This document shows, piece after piece, positions 5,753 to 60,840 of a DNA stretch of 64,000 nt. Position numbers and translations under genes: made by a program. The notes under the pieces were generated by a model. That model was not told the origin of the DNA and searched no databases. It saw only the letters and a list, made by a program, of their open reading frames with translations. This DNA comes from a bacterium (GTDB lineage Bacteria > UBA8248): NCBI GenBank assembly GCA_965219955.1, contig OZ244799.1, positions 3,616,001 to 3,680,000 on the forward strand, in the 5' to 3' direction. Each line of letters starts with the position of its first letter. Position 1 is the stretch's first letter.

Positions 5753-6312
5753 CCCCCCCCTCCTCAAGGGATAAAGGAACCCCCCTTATCGGGGCTGTTG
5801 AAAAAGTCCCTCGATGTGGGAAAACCACCGTCATTCCGGCGAAAGCCGGAATCCATTTTGTGATTTTTGCTTTCGTTTTCGCATTTGGCTCCGCCTCGCG
5901 GGAGGGAGTTGCGCGCCCGAATCCGGAACGGATGAGGCGGATATGTATGGCGGTGCCCGTATCTTCCCAGGGCGGGAGAGAGTACGGCCGGGCGAAAGGC
6001 CAAAGACAAAGGCGAAAATGGATTCCGGGCAATCCCTCCCTCCTCGGTCGGCATTGATTGCCGGAATGACGAACCAAAACCCTACCACCTCACCCTGAGT
6101 AGCGGCGAAGCCGCGTATCGAAGGGCGAGGCCCCGCACCCATCGGGGGACGTTCGTCCTTCCTCCTTCGATACGGCGCTGGCGTGCCTACTCAGGATGAG
6201 GAGGTTGGGGTGCTTGCGCGCCCGTCCCGAAATCGGCTTTTTCAACAACCCCGATAAGGGGGGATAGGGGGGTGATTTTATCCCCCGCCGAGGGGGACTT
6301 TTTCAATGGCCC
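5753..6312. mobile_element. Nested repeat mosaic 1: D-type hairpin halves > TIR element > REP-A pair + REP-B pair
   Basis: 26-bp inverted repeat 5781-5806/6237-6262 (1 mismatch); REP-A 5830-5855/6019-6070; REP-B 6088-6201. Confidence 0.85.
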
Positions 6313-39204: not shown

Positions 39205-42200
39205 ATGAATCTGCCCCGCGCGAGCGTCAAATACCCCGTCACGACCACCGTCGGCGTCATCCTGGCGGTGCTCTTCGGCGCCATCAGCCTCTACCGGATT
39301 CCGGTGCAGATGACGCCCACGGTCGACAGGCCCGTCATCACGGTGGAAACCGAATACAGCGGCGCCGCGCCGCTGGAGGTGGAAGAGGAGGTGACGAAGC
39401 CCAAAGAGGAGAAACTCACCTCGGTGGAGGGCCTCGACCGGATGACCTCGCGCAGCGAGGAGGGCAAGTCCCGCGTCTTTCTCGAATTCGACTGGGACGT
39501 GGACAAGGACGTGGCCCGGCTCGACGTCTCGGAGAAACTCGGTCTCGTGCGCGACCTGCCGGATGATTCGGACCGCTCCACCGTCAACGCGCTCAACTCG
39601 GATTCTGAAAGCCCCATCGCCTGGATAATCGTCGAAACCAAACTTCCCATCAACGATGTTCGTGTGGAGGGAGACGCCGTCATCCGGCCGAAGCTCGAGC
39701 GCGTGGAGGGCGTGGGCCAGGTCTGGATGTTCGGTGGGCGGGACAGGGAGGTGCGCGTTACGCTCGATTACACGGCCATGAGCGCGCGCGGCATCACGGT
39801 CTCCGCCTTGAGAGAGGCATTGCGGCGCGAGAACAAGAACACCAAGGCGGGCAGGATCGACGAGGGCAAGCGCCGCTACGCGGTGCGAACGGTGGGCAAC
39901 TTCACGCGCCTCGACCAGTTGCGCAACACCATCATTGCGCAAAACGGGAGCGGGGCCGTCTATCTGCGCGACGTGGCGAAGGTTTCCTTCGACTACGGCG
40001 ATCCCACCCGCTACATTCGCATCCGGCGCGTGCCCACTATGGCTTTCGGGGTTTTGCGAAAGACGGGCGCCAACACCATCGAGGTGATGGCGGGGGTCAA
40101 AAAGGCGATCGCCGAAGTCAACGAAACCTACGCAGGCCGCGGCATCAAACTCATACAGGTCTATGACGAGACTGACTACATCCACCAGTCACGCTCCCTG
40201 GTGATCAACAACATCTTCATAGGCGGCGCGCTGGCGATAGGCGTGTTGCTCCTGTTTTTGGGGAGTCTTTCGAGCGTCATGGTTATCGGCGTCGCCATCC
40301 CGGTCACCGTCGTCTCCACGTTCATCCTGATCTTCGTGCTGGATCGTTCCATCAACATCATTTCGCTTGCGGGCATGGCGTTCGCCGTCGGCATGGTGGT
40401 GGACAACTCCGTCGTCGTGCTGGAGAACATCTTCCGACACCGCGAGATGGGAAAGAGCAAGTGGGACGCCGCCGTGGACGGCGCGCAGGAGGTCTGGGGG
40501 GCGGTGCTGGCCTCCACGCTGACCACGCTGGCCGTCTTCGTTCCCGTGGTGTTCGTCCAGGACGAATCGGGCCAGCTCTTCCGCGACATCGCCATTGCCA
40601 TCAGCGTGGCGGTGGCGCTCTCCCTCGTGGTGTCGATCTCCGTCGTGCCCATGCTGAGTTCGCGCATCCTGAGCGATGCGGGGAAGATCTCTCCGCTGAC
40701 CCACTTTTTCCGCATCCTGGGGGTATACGCGCTGGGCAGGTTTTGCCGGCGGATTTACGTGGGCGTCCTGGCCTGGTTGCTGCGTGGGGTGGTGCGCCGC
40801 CTGTTCGTGGCCACGGGGATCACGGCGGGCGCCGTCGCCCTGGCGGTGATGTTCTTCCCGCCCATCGACTACCTGCCCAAGGGCAACCGCAACCTCATAT
40901 TCGCTTTCATGCGCACGCCGCCGGGTCTGAACCTCGACGAGATGGACAGGATCGTGCGAATTCTGGAGACGCGGCTCGACCGCGTGGAGGAAATCGACCG
41001 GTTTTTCGCCGTGGCGCGCGCGCAGAACCCCATCGTCGGCATGATCGCCAAGAAGGAATACTCCGATCTCGCTTCCATGCGGCGGCTCGTGCGCAAGTTG
41101 TTCGGAATGATGCAGGGCATACCGGGGGTGCGCGCGTTCGTCACCCAGGCGTCGTTGTTCAGGCGGCGGGGCTCGGGCTTCATCGGCGGGATCAACCTGC
41201 AGGTCGACATCACCGGAGACAGCCTGAGCGAGATTCAGCGTATCGCCGCTGACGTGGGCGCCAGGGCGCGCGGTCTCGACGGCGTGCGTTTCGTGAACTC
41301 AAGCTTCGATCTGGGAAATCCCGAGCTTCAGGTGCACGTGGACCGCCAGAAGGCGGCGGATTTCGGCCTGTCGGTGGCCGAGATCGGGAGCGTTGTGGAG
41401 ACGCTCGTGAACGGAACCAAGGCCGGCCTTTTCCGTGATCGCGGAGAGGAACTCGACATCATCCTGCGCGGGCCGCTTTCCGATTTCACCAGGACGCAGC
41501 GGATCGAGGAGATCAAGCTGCACACGCCGGAGGGTCAAGTCGTCTCGCTGGCGGACATCGCGCAGGTGCGCTCGGCGCTCGGGCCGACGAAAGTCGAGCA
41601 CATCGACCGCGACCGCTCCGTGTCGCTCACGGTCAACATCGGCGAGGAACTCCCGCTCCAGGACGCCATCGACAAGATGAAGCGGGAGGTCATCAACCCG
41701 ATGCGCCAGACGCTTCCGCTCGGCTATTCGGTGGACGTGAGCGGACGGGCGAAGGACCTGGAGCGAACCTGGGGGTCGCTCCAGTGGTCGCTGGTGCTCG
41801 CCGTCCTGATCACCTATCTGCTGATGGCGGCCCTGTTCGAGGCGTGGAGCTATCCGCTCATCATCATGTTCAGCGTGCCGTTCGCCGCCACGGGCGGCGT
41901 GCTGATGGTGAGCCTGATGAACTCGATAGAACCGTCGGTGAAGATGGACACGCTCACCATGCTGGGCTTCATCATCCTGACGGGCATCGTGGTGAACAAC
42001 GCGATCCTGCTCGTCCACCAGGCGCTGAACCATTTCCGCGCGGGCCTGCCCATGCGCGAGGCGATTCTCGAGAGCGCGCGCGACAGGATGCGCCCCATCT
42101 TCATGACGACCACGACGACCGTTCTCGGCATGCTGCCGCTGGTGCTCGCCTCCGGCGCGGGCAGCGAACTCTACCGGGGGCTGGGCTCGGCCGTCCTGGG

Positions 42201-42402
42201 CGGACTCGCCATGTCCACGCTCTTCACCCTGCTGCTGATACCGGTCGTCTTCTCGTTGTGGGTGGATTTCCTGGCGCTCATCCGGCCGGCCAGCTTCGCC
42301 GCTGCGGCCGCCGCGCCGAGCGGCGCAAGCGGCCCACCTTCTGAGCGCGTAAGGCCGAGGAAAGCGATCAACCTCATCGAACAAGAGGAAGAGGAAGCCT
42401 GA
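39205..42402 (+). CDS. RND efflux transporter permease (AcrB/AcrD/AcrF family)
   Basis: 1065 aa; GMVVDNSVVVLENI, ASTLTT, VNNAILLV, RMRPIFMT. Confidence 0.95.
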   Translation: MNLPRASVKYPVTTTVGVILAVLFGAISLYRIPVQMTPTVDRPVITVETEYSGAAPLEVEEEVTKPKEEKLTSVEGLDRMTSRSEEGKSRVFLEFDWDVDKDVARLDVSEKLGLVRDLPDDSDRSTVNALNSDSESPIAWIIVETKLPINDVRVEGDAVIRPKLERVEGVGQVWMFGGRDREVRVTLDYTAMSARGITVSALREALRRENKNTKAGRIDEGKRRYAVRTVGNFTRLDQLRNTIIAQNGSGAVYLRDVAKVSFDYGDPTRYIRIRRVPTMAFGVLRKTGANTIEVMAGVKKAIAEVNETYAGRGIKLIQVYDETDYIHQSRSLVINNIFIGGALAIGVLLLFLGSLSSVMVIGVAIPVTVVSTFILIFVLDRSINIISLAGMAFAVGMVVDNSVVVLENIFRHREMGKSKWDAAVDGAQEVWGAVLASTLTTLAVFVPVVFVQDESGQLFRDIAIAISVAVALSLVVSISVVPMLSSRILSDAGKISPLTHFFRILGVYALGRFCRRIYVGVLAWLLRGVVRRLFVATGITAGAVALAVMFFPPIDYLPKGNRNLIFAFMRTPPGLNLDEMDRIVRILETRLDRVEEIDRFFAVARAQNPIVGMIAKKEYSDLASMRRLVRKLFGMMQGIPGVRAFVTQASLFRRRGSGFIGGINLQVDITGDSLSEIQRIAADVGARARGLDGVRFVNSSFDLGNPELQVHVDRQKAADFGLSVAEIGSVVETLVNGTKAGLFRDRGEELDIILRGPLSDFTRTQRIEEIKLHTPEGQVVSLADIAQVRSALGPTKVEHIDRDRSVSLTVNIGEELPLQDAIDKMKREVINPMRQTLPLGYSVDVSGRAKDLERTWGSLQWSLVLAVLITYLLMAALFEAWSYPLIIMFSVPFAATGGVLMVSLMNSIEPSVKMDTLTMLGFIILTGIVVNNAILLVHQALNHFRAGLPMREAILESARDRMRPIFMTTTTTVLGMLPLVLASGAGSELYRGLGSAVLGGLAMSTLFTLLLIPVVFSLWVDFLALIRPASFAAAAAAPSGASGPPSERVRPRKAINLIEQEEEEA

Positions 42403-43368
42403 GGGGGGTTGTTGGAAAAGTCCTCGTCAGTCGGTGTTGCGGTTGTAGCAGGGACAACCCTTTGGGGTTGTCCTGCCCTCCGTGGTTGTCCTTTTGCAGG
42501 ATGGTTCGAATCAGGACAGGCACGGAGGCCTGTCCCTACGGGGCGGCGCCTCCCCGGTCGGTTCGATTGCCCCCTCATTTGTTGAAAACCAACCCCCCTA
42601 CCCCCCCTTGACGGGCTTGTTGAAAAACCTTCTCGACTGGAATTGACGAGGGGTTTCTTATGCGCCCGGATTCGGGTGTCGTTATCGAGACAACTGATGC
42701 GATTCGCCACGAAGTCGTCATTCCGGCGAAAGCCGGAATCCATTTTGACTTTTCAGCGGGCGGGGCGGCCACGGTCTTGTTGTCGCGCGGCGTCCGGATG
42801 CGGAATCCAGAAGATTCGCCTCTCGTTTTTGTGTTCGATTCTGTCCCTCGCTACCCGAGAATAAAGCCATCCGAAGGAGGAGGCGAAAAGGCAAAGGCGA
42901 AAATGGATTCCGGCTTTCGCCGGAATGACGGCCAAAACCCGAAATCGGGCGGAGGAGCAGGCGGTCACTTCCTCCTCGATAGGGTTTTTCAACACCCCCT
43001 TGACAGGGGGGTATAAAAAGGCGATGCGCCCCCACCGGGCTGAGGGGGTTTTGCTTTTTCTTGCCCCCCTGACAACGGGTTGTTGAAAAAGTCCTCCTTG
43101 GTCGGAATTGGCCTCTCCCTCATCCCGAGTAGGTCCTGTAAACCACGTCGAAACTCCATCCTCATCCCGAGTAGGCGCGCTTGCGCGCCGTATCGAGGGA
43201 GCGCCCTTCGATACGCCGCCTTCGGCGGCTACTCAGGGTGAGGCAGGTACTGTGGCCTGCAAAGCGAGGAGCACGCGTTTGTTCAAATGTCGGCTTTTTC
43301 AACAACCCCGACGGGGGTAGGGGGGGTTGGTTTTATCCCCTGAGGAGCGGGGCTATTTCAACAACCCT
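42403..43368. mobile_element. Nested repeat mosaic: outer TIR element > REP-C pair + D element > two inner TIR elements (REP-A and REP-B cargo)
   Basis: Outer ends GGGGTTGTTGGAAAAG / CTATTTCAACAACCC lie between two convergent stop codons; inner elements at about 42613-42997 and 43077-43309. Confidence 0.88.
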
Positions 43369-44166
43369 CTAACCGCCCGCTTCGGCCAGGAACGCATCCA
43401 CGGCCGCGTTCCACTCGGTATGGGAGCGGCGGTAGCTGTAGTGCCCCCCCTCTTCCAGAATGACGAGCTCAGAACCCGCTATCGCTTTCTGTAAGTCCTG
43501 CGCGAAATACGGCGGGGTCAAGGCGTCGTCCTTCGCGGCGATGATGAGCGCGGGCTTGTCGATCTTGTGAATCTCGGACGTCCTGTCGTGGCTGAGCGTC
43601 ATGTCGAGGCGCGCGGTGATGACCTCCACGGGCGCGATGGTGTCCTTCTGGCGCGCTTCGAGCTCCAGGAGGTTCTCGTACATGTTCACGAACTGCGTCC
43701 ACCCGCACGTCCAGAGCGAACTGAACTTGATGTATTCCTCGAGACCGTAGGCCTCGGCGATCTGCTTGCGCGAGGTCTGGAGGCGCGTCATGTAGGGGTC
43801 CGCCGTCGTCCATGTGTTGGTGAACACGCAGCAGCCTATCCGGTCGGGATAATCGAGTGCGAGATTCTGCAGTATGCACCCGCCCGTGGATGTGCCCGCC
43901 ACGTGGGCCTTCTCGATTCCCAGCGTGTCGAGCAGGGCGACCGCGTCCTGCGCGATGATGCCGGTGGAGTAGGCGTCCCTGGGCTTGTCGCTCTCTCCCG
44001 TGCCCCTGTGGTCGAAGGTGATGCAGCGGTAGCGATCCGAGAAATGGGGCATCTGGAAGTCCCAGGCGTCCAAAAGGCCCATGAGGCCGGGGATGAACAG
44101 GAACGCCTCCCCCTCTCCTTGCTCCGCGTAGTTGAGCTGGATATCACCGGCTTGAATGCGTGGCAT
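43369..44166 (-). CDS. Alpha/beta hydrolase (RutD-like)
   Basis: DHRGTGES, GTSTGG nucleophile elbow, AKDDALTP, GGH. Confidence 0.85.
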   Translation of the reverse strand: MPRIQAGDIQLNYAEQGEGEAFLFIPGLMGLLDAWDFQMPHFSDRYRCITFDHRGTGESDKPRDAYSTGIIAQDAVALLDTLGIEKAHVAGTSTGGCILQNLALDYPDRIGCCVFTNTWTTADPYMTRLQTSRKQIAEAYGLEEYIKFSSLWTCGWTQFVNMYENLLELEARQKDTIAPVEVITARLDMTLSHDRTSEIHKIDKPALIIAAKDDALTPPYFAQDLQKAIAGSELVILEEGGHYSYRRSHTEWNAAVDAFLAEAGG

Positions 44167-44183
44167 GATTTCTCCTTATCAGT

Positions 44184-45197
44184 TTATTCGTTCTCGTCGT
44201 TCAGGATTTCGGCCACCTCCACGCGGCGTCCCTCTTTCGCTGAGCGCACGCCCGCGCGGATGACGGCGAGAGAGGACACGGCGGCGTCGCCTTCCATCTC
44301 GGGAGGCGCGCCTCCGCGCACGGCGTCCGCGAATTCCTCGAGTTCTTCGGTGATGGTGTCGTTCTTATCGCACGCCACCGCCTGCGGCGCCTTCTCTCCC
44401 CGGTAGAGGACGCGCAGGCCGTCGAATAGCGTGTAGTAGGCCGTGGCCGTCTTCCCGTAGATGTTCATGAGGTAATACTCCGACGCCGAGGCGTAGCTCG
44501 CCGTCAGGTTCGAGATGGCGCCCGATTCGTGCTCCAGGATGAGGTTCGCCACGTCGGGGTTGTCGCCGGGCAGGACGAGTTGCGCCGTCCGGCCCGAGAC
44601 GGCGGCGACCGGCCCCATGAGGTAGGTCAGCACGTCGGCGTAGTGGATGCCGATCTGGAGCATGACGCCGCCCGGCATGGCGTCGGCCTGGTAGCGCCAG
44701 TGGCCGGGTTCGAACTGGCCCTCCCTGTCCCTGCTGATGTTGCACTCCGCCTGCACGAGCCTGCCGAACTCGCCCGCGTCTATCTTCTCCCTGATCCAGC
44801 GGAAGTGGTTCTCCCGCCGCCTCTGGTAGCCGATGGCGAGCACCACGCCGGCGTCTGCGCAGGCGCGGGTGAGCGCCTTGCCGTCCGCGACCGTGTGAGC
44901 GATGGGTTTGTCGAGAAAAACGTGCTTGCCCGCCTCGGCCGCCGCTTTCGTGGATTCGAGGTGCACGTGGTTCGGCGTGGTGTTGATGATGGCCTCGATA
45001 GAGTCGTCCGCCAGAATTTCCTCATAGCTGCCCGCCGGCTCGCAGCCGTATTTTTTGGCGAAGGCCGCGCGCTTGTCTTCGGAGCGCGTGAAGCAGGCGG
45101 CTATCTCGATCTTGTCGGTTCTGCCGATAGCATCCGCCAGAACGTCCGACCACCAGCCCATGCCGAGCGAGGCCACTCTCAGGGGTTTTGAACTCAT
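44184..45197 (-). CDS. Gfo/Idh/MocA oxidoreductase
   Basis: GMGWW, TPNHVH, HVFLDKP, GGVMLQIGIH. Confidence 0.9.
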   Translation of the reverse strand: MSSKPLRVASLGMGWWSDVLADAIGRTDKIEIAACFTRSEDKRAAFAKKYGCEPAGSYEEILADDSIEAIINTTPNHVHLESTKAAAEAGKHVFLDKPIAHTVADGKALTRACADAGVVLAIGYQRRRENHFRWIREKIDAGEFGRLVQAECNISRDREGQFEPGHWRYQADAMPGGVMLQIGIHYADVLTYLMGPVAAVSGRTAQLVLPGDNPDVANLILEHESGAISNLTASYASASEYYLMNIYGKTATAYYTLFDGLRVLYRGEKAPQAVACDKNDTITEELEEFADAVRGGAPPEMEGDAAVSSLAVIRAGVRSAKEGRRVEVAEILNDENE

Positions 45198-45857: not shown

Positions 45858-46214
45858 GTAGCCGACCGGAGAGGTAAGATACATCTCTCCTCCCTTGAGT
45901 GGGCTGTTGAAAAACCCCTCTCCGCCTCATCTTGAGTAGCGGCCCCTCGACTTCGCTCGGGACAGGCTCCGCCGTTCCCCGACACCCCTCATCCTGAGTA
46001 GGCGCGTAAGCGCCGTATCGAAGGTCAAACGCGATTGATGAATGAGCGTTTGCTCTCGTCCCGGCGCGAGCCCCTCGCCCTTCGATACGCCGCCTTCGGC
46101 GGCTACTCAGGGTGAGGAAAGAGTCGTTGGCGGTTTGCGGGGGTCGCAGACGGGGCTTATTCAACAACCCACTCAAGGGGGGAGTGATTGTTCCCACTCT
46201 CGCCGGCCGGCTAC
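45858..46214. mobile_element. Nested repeat mosaic: GTAG-ended IR > E-type halves > TIR element > REP-B pair
   Basis: IRs 45858-45873/46197-46214 and 45892-45914/46157-46179; REP-B 45987-46117. Confidence 0.82.
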
Positions 46215-50589: not shown

Positions 50590-50998
50590 AGAACGGCCAC
50601 GGGGGGCCGCCCCTGCGTGTCCCGTGCTTTTCGAATCGAACCCGCAGGGACAGGCCCCTGCGCCTGTCCTTATGGGCTTTTTCAACAGCCCCCTTGAAGA
50701 AGGAACCTGTAGGGGCGGTTCGCGAACCGCCCCTGCGCCACCTCTATTCACAGATCATCGTCATTCCGGCGAAAGCCGGAATCCATTTGCGGGTGCGCGT
50801 GAATGAGCGGGGCCGTTTCAATCCCCGCCGATGCGCAGGAACCCTAAAGAAAGGCAAAAGGCGTAAAATGGATTCCGGCTTTCGCCGGAATGACGGCCCT
50901 GGGGACAGGCCTCCGTACCTGCCCTGACGAGGGACAACCACGGAGGGTTGTCCCTACAACCGCCAATCTTCCTTTATCGGACTTTTTCAACAACCCCC
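50590..50998. repeat. Repeat mosaic: two TIR right ends, GTAG palindrome, REP-A pair, REP-C units
   Basis: TTTTTCAACAGCCCC near 50678 and TTTTTCAACAACCCC near 50983; REP-A 50760-50894; palindrome 50709-50736. Confidence 0.8.
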
Positions 50999-51914: not shown

Positions 51915-52075
51915 ACGCTTCGGGAGAATCCTCTTTGTTGCGCAAAAGAGGCAGAGTATACATACCGCCCCTTCGGGTGGCCACCCCTTTCAGGCGGCTG
52001 CCCCGGTGGGGCGACCGCTCCGCCGGGCGGGCGCGAGAGGCGAGACGCGCTTGCGGATGAACATCCTCGCTGGCG

Positions 52076-52539
52076 GGGGTTGTTGAAAAAGTCTCCCTCC
52101 TCAGGGGATAAGGGCAACCCCCCCTACCCCCCCTTGTCAGGGGGGCAAGAAAAAACAAAAGCCCCTCAACCGGCGGCGGACGTCGCCTTTTCATACCCCT
52201 CCCCCGACAAGGGGGCGTTCTTTTTTTACCCCCCTGCCAAGGGGGGGGTAGGGGGGGTTGGTTTTCGAGGCGAGAACCTGCGCCTCCGCCCGGTTTCGGG
52301 TTTTGGCTGTCATTCCGGTGGAGGAGCCGACCGCAGAGGGGTGCGATGATTTTGTAGGGACAGGCCTCCGTGCCTGTCCTGCTCTCCGTGGTTCTCCTTC
52401 GTCAGGACAGGCACGGAGGCCTGTCCCTACGGTAAACAATTCGATGTTCGGGATGCCCTCCCTTCCTCGGGAGGACTTTTAGGGCAGCCCCGACAAGGGG
52501 GGAGTGATTCCTCTCTCCTCGGGGTTTTTCAACAGCCCC
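52076..52539. mobile_element. TIR element carrying an intact D element and a REP-C pair
   Basis: GGGGTTGTTGAAAAAG ... GTTTTTCAACAGCCCC; D 52095-52265; REP-C 52354-52430. Confidence 0.85.
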
Positions 52540-60477: not shown

Positions 60478-60840
60478 GGGGTTGTTGAAAATACCTTTCT
60501 CAAGGAGATCCATCGAAAACTCCCTTGAGGGGAGAGAATCCCGATCATCGAATTGTTCACCGTAGGGACAGGCCTCTGTGCCTGTCCTAACGAAGGACAA
60601 CCACGGAGGGTTGTCCCTACAAAACCATCACGAAGGTTTTTCAACAACCCCCTCAAGGGGGAGTGAATACCCTCTCTCCTCGCTTGGAATAAAGGTCGTC
60701 ATTCCGGCGAAAGCCGGAATCCATTCTAAAGCAGAATGATGATACCCCGGCTTTTCATCTCATCGTCGTTGGAGGGAATCATTCAGAAAATAAAAGACAA
60801 AAGCGAAACCAAATGGATTCCGGCTCAAGGCCGGAATGAC
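60478..60840. mobile_element. TIR element with REP-C pair, then an E half and a REP-A pair
   Basis: GGGGTTGTTGAAAAT ... TTTTTCAACAACCCC-CTCAAGGGGGAGTGA; REP-C 60562-60620; REP-A 60698-60840. Confidence 0.82.

Follow-up and report, generated by a model that had tools for sequence, protein, structure and literature searches.

The stretch of DNA analyzed here, called the window below, comprises 64,000 nucleotides of contig OZ244799.1 from the bacterial assembly GCA_965219955.1 (lineage UBA8248), a genome of 4.28 Mb that we refer to as G000; coordinates without a genome label are window positions. Between two convergent genes, the window contains an intergenic repeat block of 966 bp (42403-43368), which spans exactly from stop to stop. 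The left neighbor (39205-42402, plus strand), taken from the list of open reading frames (ORFs), encodes an AcrB/RND-type efflux transporter (Pfam ACR_tran, 756.8 bits) with a TGA stop that ends at 42402. The right neighbor (43369-44166, minus strand) encodes an alpha/beta hydrolase (Pfam Abhydrolase_1, 109.8 bits) with its stop at 43369-43371. None of the four ORFs within the block has a Pfam match, so no coding capacity was seen. Rfam gave no gathering-score match for the region in a scan of the whole window, and a search of 42300-43450 at E<=1 returned two chance-level matches only. Every piece of the block recurs in the genome, with copy numbers from 2 to about 295. [quoted passage not shown]

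Three pairs of inverted ends are nested in the block, and the ends of the outer and inner elements share the form GGGN-YTGTTGAAAAA. The outermost pair, detected by an inverted-repeat search, consists of GGGTTGTTGGAAAAGTCC at 42406-42423 (plus strand) and its partner at 43350-43367 (minus strand; GGGCTATTTCAACAACCC if read on the plus strand), 18 nt with 83% complementarity, and both ends are also present at this locus in the related genome G011. They enclose an outer element of about 342 bp, of which several copies exist in G000 and G011. It is interrupted twice, at 42613-42999 and at 43077-43309, each time within the loop of a C-run/G-run hairpin. Its left portion holds a cluster of GTAG-tagged palindromes, the REP-C module (42445-42541), with 90-278 copies in the genome; the same composite flanks RAYT-like genes (REP-associated tyrosine transposase; REP, repetitive extragenic palindrome) in relatives. 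The right portion is the D module, which lies in three parts on the plus strand. The left part (42577-42612), defined from the sequence and by alignment to G011 and to a second copy near 52 kb, comprises the degenerate end TTTGTTGAAAACC, the C-runs and a TTGAC at 42608-42612. The middle part (43000-43076) holds the right TTGAC (43000-43004) and the G-run of hairpin 1, then a spacer and the C-run with the loop of hairpin 2, and the right part (43310-43349) carries the remnant of the hairpin 2 loop and its G-run, followed by GGGGGTAGGGGGGGTTGG.

The first interruption, MITE 1 (42613-42999, plus strand, 387 bp), has the ends GGGCTTGTTGAAAAA and TTTTTCAACACCCCC (42613-42628/42982-42999), which lie within a longer inverted pair at 42599-42636/42976-43013 (38 nt, 79% complementary). 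It carries a head-to-head dimer of a palindrome named REP-A (42716-42930), whose two inverted hairpins of 38 nt (42716-42753 and 42893-42930, 92% complementary) are separated by a 139-nt spacer. MITE 1 occurs in four full-length copies at four loci with about 85-86% identity. The second interruption, MITE 2 (43077-43309, plus strand, 233 bp), has the ends GGGTTGTTGAAAAAG and CTTTTTCAACAACCCC, of which 15 nt (43077-43091/43294-43308) are 100% complementary. It is a single-copy mosaic, for which a second full-length copy was not found genome-wide, and contains a REP-B module (43160-43243; 100-235 copies in the genome). This module forms an imperfect palindrome about 84 nt long, and its family boundaries are sharp; alignment end-points of REP-B in MITE 2 accumulate at element positions 80-84 and 165-170.

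An earlier note on this DNA had proposed that removing two segments bounded by terminal inverted repeats restores D, that both segments sit at the apices of the two hairpins of D, and that a third pair of inverted repeats runs from stop to stop. All of this was borne out. Aligning 42560-43372 to the reverse complement of 52070-52275 gave two large gaps, one at each inner segment. The reference for this alignment belongs to a second element, which has the same ends, is oriented the other way round (52076-52536, minus strand; ends at 52079-52091 on the plus and 52524-52536 on the minus strand) and carries an uninterrupted D. The two D copies are not identical, as the one at 52 kb has one additional hairpin. 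The claim of a REP-A pair in one segment was equally correct, but the presumed REP-B pair in the other is the single long palindrome described above. A duplicated CCTTGAC around the first segment had also been reported; the duplication is real and its length is 5 bp, TTGAC. Altogether, the window contains 20 matches to GTTGTTGAAAAAG with up to two mismatches, compared with 0.68 expected, and 0 of 100 shuffles reached this number. Further ends of the same family were seen at 5794-6249, 45903-46168, 50677-50994 and 60481-60648; several of them form inward-facing pairs, and the window therefore holds other MITEs of the family.

Related genomes provided both empty and filled sites, whose comparison the earlier note had suggested. 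A search with 41200-44400 in 20 related genomes found the locus in all 12 genomes of the same genus. G012, G002, G008 and G010 lack the block: their two genes meet directly, and the stops overlap (..GAGGA CTAA CCGCC..). Compared with these four genomes, the entire block is an insertion. G011, with flanks of 94-95% identity, has the outer left end, the REP-C module, an uninterrupted D and the outer right end directly before CTAA. Its empty D reads ...CCCCCCC TTGTCA GGGGGG TATAAAAAGG...CCCCCC TGACAA GGGGGGGG... When the 342-bp empty form of G011 was used as a query against the genome, the window copy split into three matches (positions 1-209; 199-287, with 93% identity in the middle part of D; and 287-342, with 95% in the right part), and therefore both inner elements, which are absent from G011, are insertions relative to this genome. 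Folded as single-stranded DNA, the empty hairpin 1 of G011 reached -11.5 kcal/mol in a 46-nt piece, and 0 of 200 shuffles folded as well.

Some further observations concern the same intergenic site. The last codons of the left gene differ between the filled locus and the four empty loci. In G011 (L062, G011:C9), CTAA is followed by CCCGGATATTTCACCGACAAATGG... instead of the hydrolase gene, and the contig ends soon after; the same sequence also flanks copies of a second IS1182-family IS in G000 (see below), and there seems to be another insertion at CTAA beyond the outer right end. Contigs from run X2, a marine metagenome, match the flanking genes with 3 and 7 differences, diverge after 42407 and before 43356, and continue for 117 and 68 further letters beyond these points. 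They may represent a different filling of the same site in another population. The public runs that contain the stretch are labelled as sponge, marine or coral metagenome.

The ends of these elements are abundant throughout the genome. The 11-mer TTGTTGAAAAA occurs 331 times exactly, compared with 0.33 expected from base composition, and CTGTTGAAAAA accounts for 272 additional occurrences. Allowing up to one mismatch, 893 sites match the end motif and 53 match the reversed motif. Neighboring inward-facing pairs mostly span 150-500 bp, but four of them span exactly 1508 bp, can be aligned over their full length and contain a single ORF of 481 amino acids each. This ORF encodes a transposase of the IS1182 family (NCBIfam NF033551, 346.8 bits with a cut-off of 270) with the Pfam domains DUF772 and DDE_Tnp_1_6. 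Elements of the IS1182 family measure roughly 1.3-1.95 kb and have a single ORF between terminal inverted repeats. The ends of the 1508-bp IS are GGGGCTGTTGAAAAACCCC and GGGCTTTTTCAACAGGCCC (GGGCCTGTTGAAAAAGCCC), and the first 15-19 nt or so are common to the short elements. The earlier note had anticipated a transposase with matching ends of IS1182 or IS5 type and had called the mini-elements non-autonomous. In line with both statements, the short elements lack visible coding capacity, and the 481-aa transposase may mobilize them in trans, as judged from the shared ends. A second IS1182-family IS is present in five identical copies (468-aa ORF; G000:C1:182254-183570 and four more places, L005-L009). 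It has the ends CAGCCTGTCGG.../...CCGACAGGCTG, which are unrelated to the MITE swarm, and a 4-bp YTAR duplication.

For the analysis of target duplications, the element boundary was set four bases outside YTGTTGAAAAA and end combinations of 80-1700 bp were evaluated, with ends paired to unrelated ends 20 kb away as control. An exact 5-bp direct repeat was found for 71 of 586 end combinations, compared with 1 of 171 in the control, which corresponds to a 20-fold enrichment and agrees with the earlier expectation of target-site duplications. This fixed-offset test replaced a strict flank pattern on neighboring pairs, which was too rigid (4 direct, 2 inverted, 18 different). The 71 duplications are far from uniform in sequence: 24 are CTCAA/TTGAG, 17 GACAA/TTGTC and 3 GTCAA/TTGAC, adding up to 44 in preferred loops, and the other 27 have other sequences. 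A stem of at least 4 pairs surrounds 27 of the 44 preferred sites, compared with 3 of the 27 non-preferred sites and 2% of random positions. Among full-length IS copies fetched from related metagenome-assembled genomes, 22 of 38 show an exact 5-bp duplication. By inspection of the flanks, 37 of these 38 copies, as well as all four in G000, lie in the loop between a C-run and a G-run. The sole exception lies in AT-rich DNA between two copies of ATGAT and therefore fixes the element boundary unambiguously.

The enrichment of junctions at hairpin apices, another point of the earlier note, was also confirmed on the genome scale. A C-run, loop and G-run precede 221 of 1268 loosely defined ends, compared with 39 of 20000 random positions. 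The genome contains 417 intact hairpins of the form C5+/loop/G5+, most often with the loops TCAA (98), TTGA (95), TTGTCA (53) and TGACAA (43); the reverse arrangement, a G-run followed by a C-run, was found 46 times without a dominant loop. Of 283 sites matching the C-run anchor of D ends, 116 continue into an intact hairpin, 39 into an inverted end and 128 into neither. Besides the C/G hairpins, a third type of landing site recurs, in which TCATC or TGATC precedes GGTCG.GTTTGA(T/C)(T/C), as in the right flanks at G000:C1:197793, 1165587 and 2030949. It is probably the element designated E in the earlier note.

The hairpins that serve as targets are themselves parts of the family. D had been regarded as another repeat, but in both G011 and G000 it forms the right-hand portion of an element that has the family ends on both sides. 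A second class, H (CACTCCCCCC TTGA GGGGGAGTG), is part of a unit of about 75 nt (..AATCACTCCCCCC TTGA GGGGGAGTCGAAGAG..GGGCGTAAGCCC..CGATTCGGTGGGGGGTATAAT), which bears the commonest target hairpin, exists in 193 intact copies (e.g. in the flanks of L001-L004) and has no Rfam family. Within 300 nt of an end, we found 161 of the 193 intact H and 82 of 114 intact D hairpins, compared with 12.5% of random positions, and 82 H and 37 D hairpins are bracketed by inward-facing ends (2.1% at random). Since D and H hairpins are carried within elements with the same ends, the nesting is a case of one family targeting itself. The reciprocal nesting of several families postulated in the earlier note is thus replaced by a family that inserts into itself, and no reverse case was found. 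Of the four nesting levels it had counted, two are demonstrable levels of transposition, and the rest are internal modules. The element tips are GGGG...CCCC, and insertion into a C-run/N5/G-run therefore leaves C4-N5-G4 at both junctions. In the genome, 44 hairpins of H type lie at such C4-N5-G4 junctions, and 11 tail-to-head junctions of ends have a spacer of 4-5 nt.

The motif was also counted in related genomes. GGGYTGTTGAAAAA occurs 386 times in G000 and 262, 243, 209, 192, 142, 77, 40 and 33 times in eight genomes of the same genus. It is absent from four others (G001, G007, G009 and G010), and each of 8 genomes beyond the genus has 0-2 occurrences. In complete motif-bearing genomes, the transposase is present in 28, 16 and 9 copies, and three more genomes have fragments or pseudogenes; no transposase match was found in the four motif-free genomes of the genus. 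Two genomes of another family encode a transposase with 64% identity, and neither has a motif swarm. In G018 the motif directly adjoins both transposase copies; in G020, about 800 bp separate a transposase fragment from one motif site. The four motif-free genomes measure 3.0-3.7 Mb and those with at least 142 motifs 3.7-4.6 Mb, which, for related genomes and rounded sizes, is a pointer only.

The palindromes inside the MITEs are closely associated with the family ends. REP-A, REP-B and REP-C have 284, 135 and 290 copies in the genome, of which 43-56% lie inside innermost end pairs, although such pairs make up 2.0% of the genome, and 78-90% lie within 300 nt of an end, compared with 12.6% at random. 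REP-A has the form CGTC ATTCCGGC GAAA GCCGGAAT CCA: the tag CGTC is followed by a stem of 8 bp, which opens with AT and encloses a loop of 4 nt, and CCA makes up the tail. The genome contains 102 head-to-head dimers of it. In tag, stem, loop, tail and dimer arrangement, it corresponds to the CGTC-1 type, for which the cited passages give these features (PMC3733652). CGTC REPs were reported in 2013 as being without a dedicated transposase. The dimers fall into two size classes of about 135-145 bp and 205-215 bp and are accompanied by about six kinds of flanking arms in many left/right combinations, as if halves consisting of end, arm and hairpin had been exchanged. Two partial MITE 1 loci exist, one with the left end and arm only and one with the right arm and end only.

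A gene for a GIY-YIG protein of 104 amino acids (G000:C1:2883477-2883788; L080:1501-1812; PF01541, 55.9 bits) has REP-A on both sides, and this layout was found in 7 of 7 loci of the same genus. The gene is present in 6 of the 8 genomes of the genus, G000 included, with at least 110 REP-A copies and in 0 of 5 with at most 65. The cited part of a study on Neisseria describes the dRS3-NTS repeats together with the GIY-YIG single-strand nuclease Ssn in an NTS-ssn-NTS layout (PMC11893778). REP-A is close to the NTS consensus and lies, judged by layout and domain, on both sides of a comparable small single-domain gene, which fits a putative Ssn-like GIY-YIG nuclease as the cognate of REP-A. We had considered the gene as a new kind of REP enzyme and dropped this idea, as the Ssn family with flanking motifs was described in 2025 in the passages seen of that study (PMC11893778). 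The gene occupies the position in G000 at which G011 has a RAYT-like gene.

REP-C, GTAGGGACAGGC...GCCTGTCCCTAC, is GTAG-tagged, and short palindromes with a GTAG tag, often in inverted pairs, are what the REP criterion in the cited passages describes (PMC3733652). It resembles REPIN-RAYT systems (REPIN, REP doublets forming hairpins) in tag and clustering and because the composite flanks a Y1 (RAYT-like) gene on both sides in G006 (L075) and G008 (L077); it differs in that about half of its copies lie inside DDE-type MITEs and no RAYT was found in G000. The search with PF01797, with NF047646 and with four relatives' RAYT-like proteins gave 0 matches, the latter counted outside the REP-like middle of these proteins. 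The RAYT-like proteins of G006 and G008 are above the Pfam cut-off and reach 65 and 76.6 bits with NCBIfam, compared with a cut-off of 80. The RAYT-like Y1 genes in L075 (G006), L076 (G012) and L077 (G008) contain an in-frame translation resembling REP-C in the middle of the protein (..GTGPRACPD..GQPRG..). Because of this stretch, the Y1 proteins match many REP-C sites in G000, and it probably also explains the scores below the NCBIfam cut-off. The description of REPINs as cargo in the earlier note therefore holds in one respect, as the modules ride in MITEs, but not in another, given that no RAYT was found in G000, and given a REP-A that is of CGTC-1/NTS type and spreads independently.

Based on these data, we propose the following course of events. 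The 481-aa DDE transposase would bind the GGGN-CTGTTGAAAAA ends and integrate them with a 5-bp staggered cut, and its strongly preferred target is a hairpin loop in which TTGAG, TTGTC(A) or TTGAC(A) stands between a C-run and a G-run. The hairpins in the D and H modules of MITEs of the same family, together with the rebuilt C4-N5-G4 motifs, would direct new insertions into old ones and so give rise to nested and tandem arrays in intergenic DNA only. At the locus, the outer MITE of about 342 bp (ends, REP-C and D) would have entered the overlapping stops of the convergent genes in a first step, and two later MITEs the two hairpin loops of D in a second. Palindromes of other repeat systems inside the MITEs, REP-C of RAYT type and REP-A of CGTC/NTS type with its GIY-YIG nuclease, would be copied along. 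In any given case, either the palindrome or the MITE may have arrived first.

Several observations weigh against this reading or narrow it. At the locus itself, the comparison of the filled site with the four empty loci shows no clean 5-bp repeat for the outer element, and the second inner element has a degenerate duplication, with GACAA(C) at its left side and GAC at its right. The closest paralogues of MITE 1 reach 85-86% identity in full-length and 90% in partial alignments, compared with 94-95% for the flanks of G000 and G011; thus, the donor of MITE 1 is not in the genome, the allele came in via recombination, or G011 lost the insertions. Moreover, none of the other three MITE 1 copies occupies a hairpin site or has an exact duplication, and an empty MITE 1, with its arms joined without the dimer, was sought genome-wide and not found. 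On the genome scale, 515 of the 586 end combinations lack an exact duplication, and the 27 of 71 verified insertions outside the preferred loops, 3 of them with a stem, show that a hairpin is preferred and not required. The fragmented genomes G003 and G005, each with about 200 motif copies, gave no match to the transposase. Finally, G007 has 115 copies of REP-A and neither such ends nor such a transposase, and REP-A therefore spreads by a route of its own, and its arrival in the MITEs may have come later.

This last observation leads to the question of whether the inner palindromes are cargo at all or were inserted into existing MITEs by their own machinery, the GIY-YIG nuclease in the case of REP-A and a RAYT in the case of REP-C, with MITE interiors being tolerated or preferred. 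Such an origin is compatible with nested IS1182-family MITEs, and we consider its chance to be somewhat less than even. Apart from REP-A in G007, it is favored by the REP-A copies around the GIY-YIG gene, by REP-C next to RAYT-like genes in relatives, by the sharp REP-B boundaries inside otherwise unique MITE 2 DNA, by the many combinations of dimers with arms, and by 25 of the 102 dimers without an end within 160 nt. On the other hand, MITE 1 with its dimer would require four independent insertions at the same internal position; its four full-length copies indicate that composites are copied as units. In addition, for 32 of the 102 dimers an inward-facing end lies no more than 160 nt away on each side, compared with 24 of 5000 random positions, and G000 lacks a detectable RAYT despite the highest REP-C count (290, compared with at most 163 in the other genomes searched, whereby a pattern derived from G000 may favor G000 slightly). 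A second question is what the transposase recognizes. The earlier note had called the element structure-targeting, but all preferred stems are C-runs and G-runs, so that structure and sequence are confounded. The enzyme could equally well read the sequence CCCC-TTGWS-GGGG, which resembles its own abutted ends, instead of an extruded hairpin, and we regard the odds for this as about even. The loops are three related 5-mers, the tips GGGG/CCCC make the target mimic an end-to-end junction, half-sites are common (28 of 71 with a C-run only or a G-run only), and 24 of the 27 non-preferred sites have no stem of at least 4 pairs. However, the stem-loops targeted by IS1272, another member of the family, are unrelated in sequence according to the cited passages (PMC5678879, PMC4923244). 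Furthermore, both loop orientations are used, as expected for a symmetric structure, although a palindromic sequence would give the same result.

Recombination among dispersed repeats without transposition of end-bounded units could in principle also create a mosaic. The bacterial interspersed mosaic elements (BIMEs) of enterobacteria are intergenic clusters of this kind, composed of several kinds of short palindromic motifs. The repetition of each block piece elsewhere, the many combinations of arms and modules, and some IS copies in relatives with inverted instead of direct loops at their two sides would suit such a process. In contrast to BIMEs, the units described here are bounded by transposon ends, come with target duplications and can be assigned a transposase, whose intact gene shares these ends. 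As the differences to G011 are delimited exactly by inverted ends with a 5-bp direct repeat at site 1, and the duplications exceed the control 20-fold, we judge a purely recombinational origin to be very improbable. Still less credible is an assembly artefact, i.e. a collapse or chimera of repeats, which the earlier note had named as a danger. The region consists wholly of multi-copy repeats and, with four runs that all yielded short contigs, no single contig spans the block; many apparent joints in these contigs stem from paralogous repeats and are uninformative for the locus. Nevertheless, exact contigs of run X16 bridge 41900-42479, 42569-42736, 43217-43342 and 43314-43900, which covers four of the six junctions, leaving 42999/43000 and 43076/43077 unbridged by an exact X16 contig; such gaps in exact coverage do not count as evidence. 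Contigs of run X1, from another study, contain the low-copy arm of MITE 1 (42618-42732) exactly and bridge the gene to the outer end with 2 differences, and the independently assembled G011 has the same outer element at the locus.

Nested MITEs of an IS1182-family element that prefer hairpin loops also have to be seen against known systems. Some members of the family reportedly target palindromes, an observation of Siguier et al. 2015 as relayed in the papers on IS1272. IS1272 of staphylococci, described together with TnSha1, inserts at stem-loops of varied sequence in the passages cited (PMC5678879, PMC4923244), so that the targeting of hairpins is already documented for this family; the loop-duplicating, self-nesting form found here is a variant of it. 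As far as these passages go, IS1272/TnSha1 and the elements in G000 share the transposase family and the orientation towards inverted-repeat or hairpin DNA. They differ in that IS1272 removes all or part of the stem-loop without a duplication, whereas the elements in G000 leave the stem in place and duplicate the 5-nt loop; in that its target sequences are unrelated, whereas here the stems are uniform C- and G-runs; and in that the passages report no MITE swarm. A pathway with a duplicated loop was drawn by the IS1272 authors as a theoretical alternative in the part cited (PMC5678879), and the outcome seen in G000 corresponds to it. IS1397 and ISKpn1 (IS3 family) and IS621 (IS110 family) insert into REP sequences, as stated in the cited passage (PMC3184786). 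They likewise use a dispersed palindromic repeat as landing site, but belong to other transposase families with another chemistry and target REPs of the host instead of hairpins of their own derivatives.

Short non-coding derivatives with IS1182-family ends are also known from Methanosarcina acetivorans, where the cited part of the report describes ISMac2-related MITEs of 160 bp in 14 copies with 26-bp ends and a 4-bp repeat (PMC3852290). In G000 the copy number is far higher, with end pairs numbering about 300 and exact ends about 600, and the elements have a 5-bp duplication, a preference for hairpin loops and modular interiors. The same source treats the nesting of prokaryotic elements as "Russian dolls" as a routine problem of detection pipelines, in the passage cited (PMC3852290). 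In comparison with CGTC-1 and NTS repeats, about three quarters of the dimers in G000 have a DDE-type inverted end within 160 nt. According to the cited passage, every CGTC-1 dimer in Halothiobacillus neapolitanus is enclosed by a palindrome of the form GGGaaGCTT-GAAAaACC...GGTaTTTCgAAGC-gCCC (PMC3733652); compared by eye only, these palindromes resemble the ends described here, a hint that comparable ends may surround such dimers elsewhere too. A literature search, with most subscription journals and ISfinder outside its scope, returned no description of the element or of self-nesting bacterial IS1182 MITEs.

Taken together, the locus offers a countable natural example of a transposon that exists in hundreds of copies with little damage and is aimed at hairpins in its own non-coding derivatives. 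It extends the hairpin habit of the IS1182 family from the deletion of a stem-loop without duplication, as in IS1272, to the retention of the stem with duplication of the loop, and raises the recognition of structure or sequence as a direct experimental question. A more speculative and rather doubtful possibility is that one DDE transposon family, with its own landing pads, acts as the vehicle that co-amplifies two mechanistically unrelated hairpin-repeat systems, of RAYT and of Ssn/CGTC type. If true, this would explain why the REP-C count of G000 is the highest in the genus (290) though no RAYT was found, and would provide a concrete spreading route for CGTC REPs. In any case, three repeat systems, DDE MITEs, RAYT-type REPs and Ssn-type hairpins, are interleaved in one sponge-associated lineage, and close relatives with none, some or all of the three form a natural comparison set for the spread and persistence of repeats.

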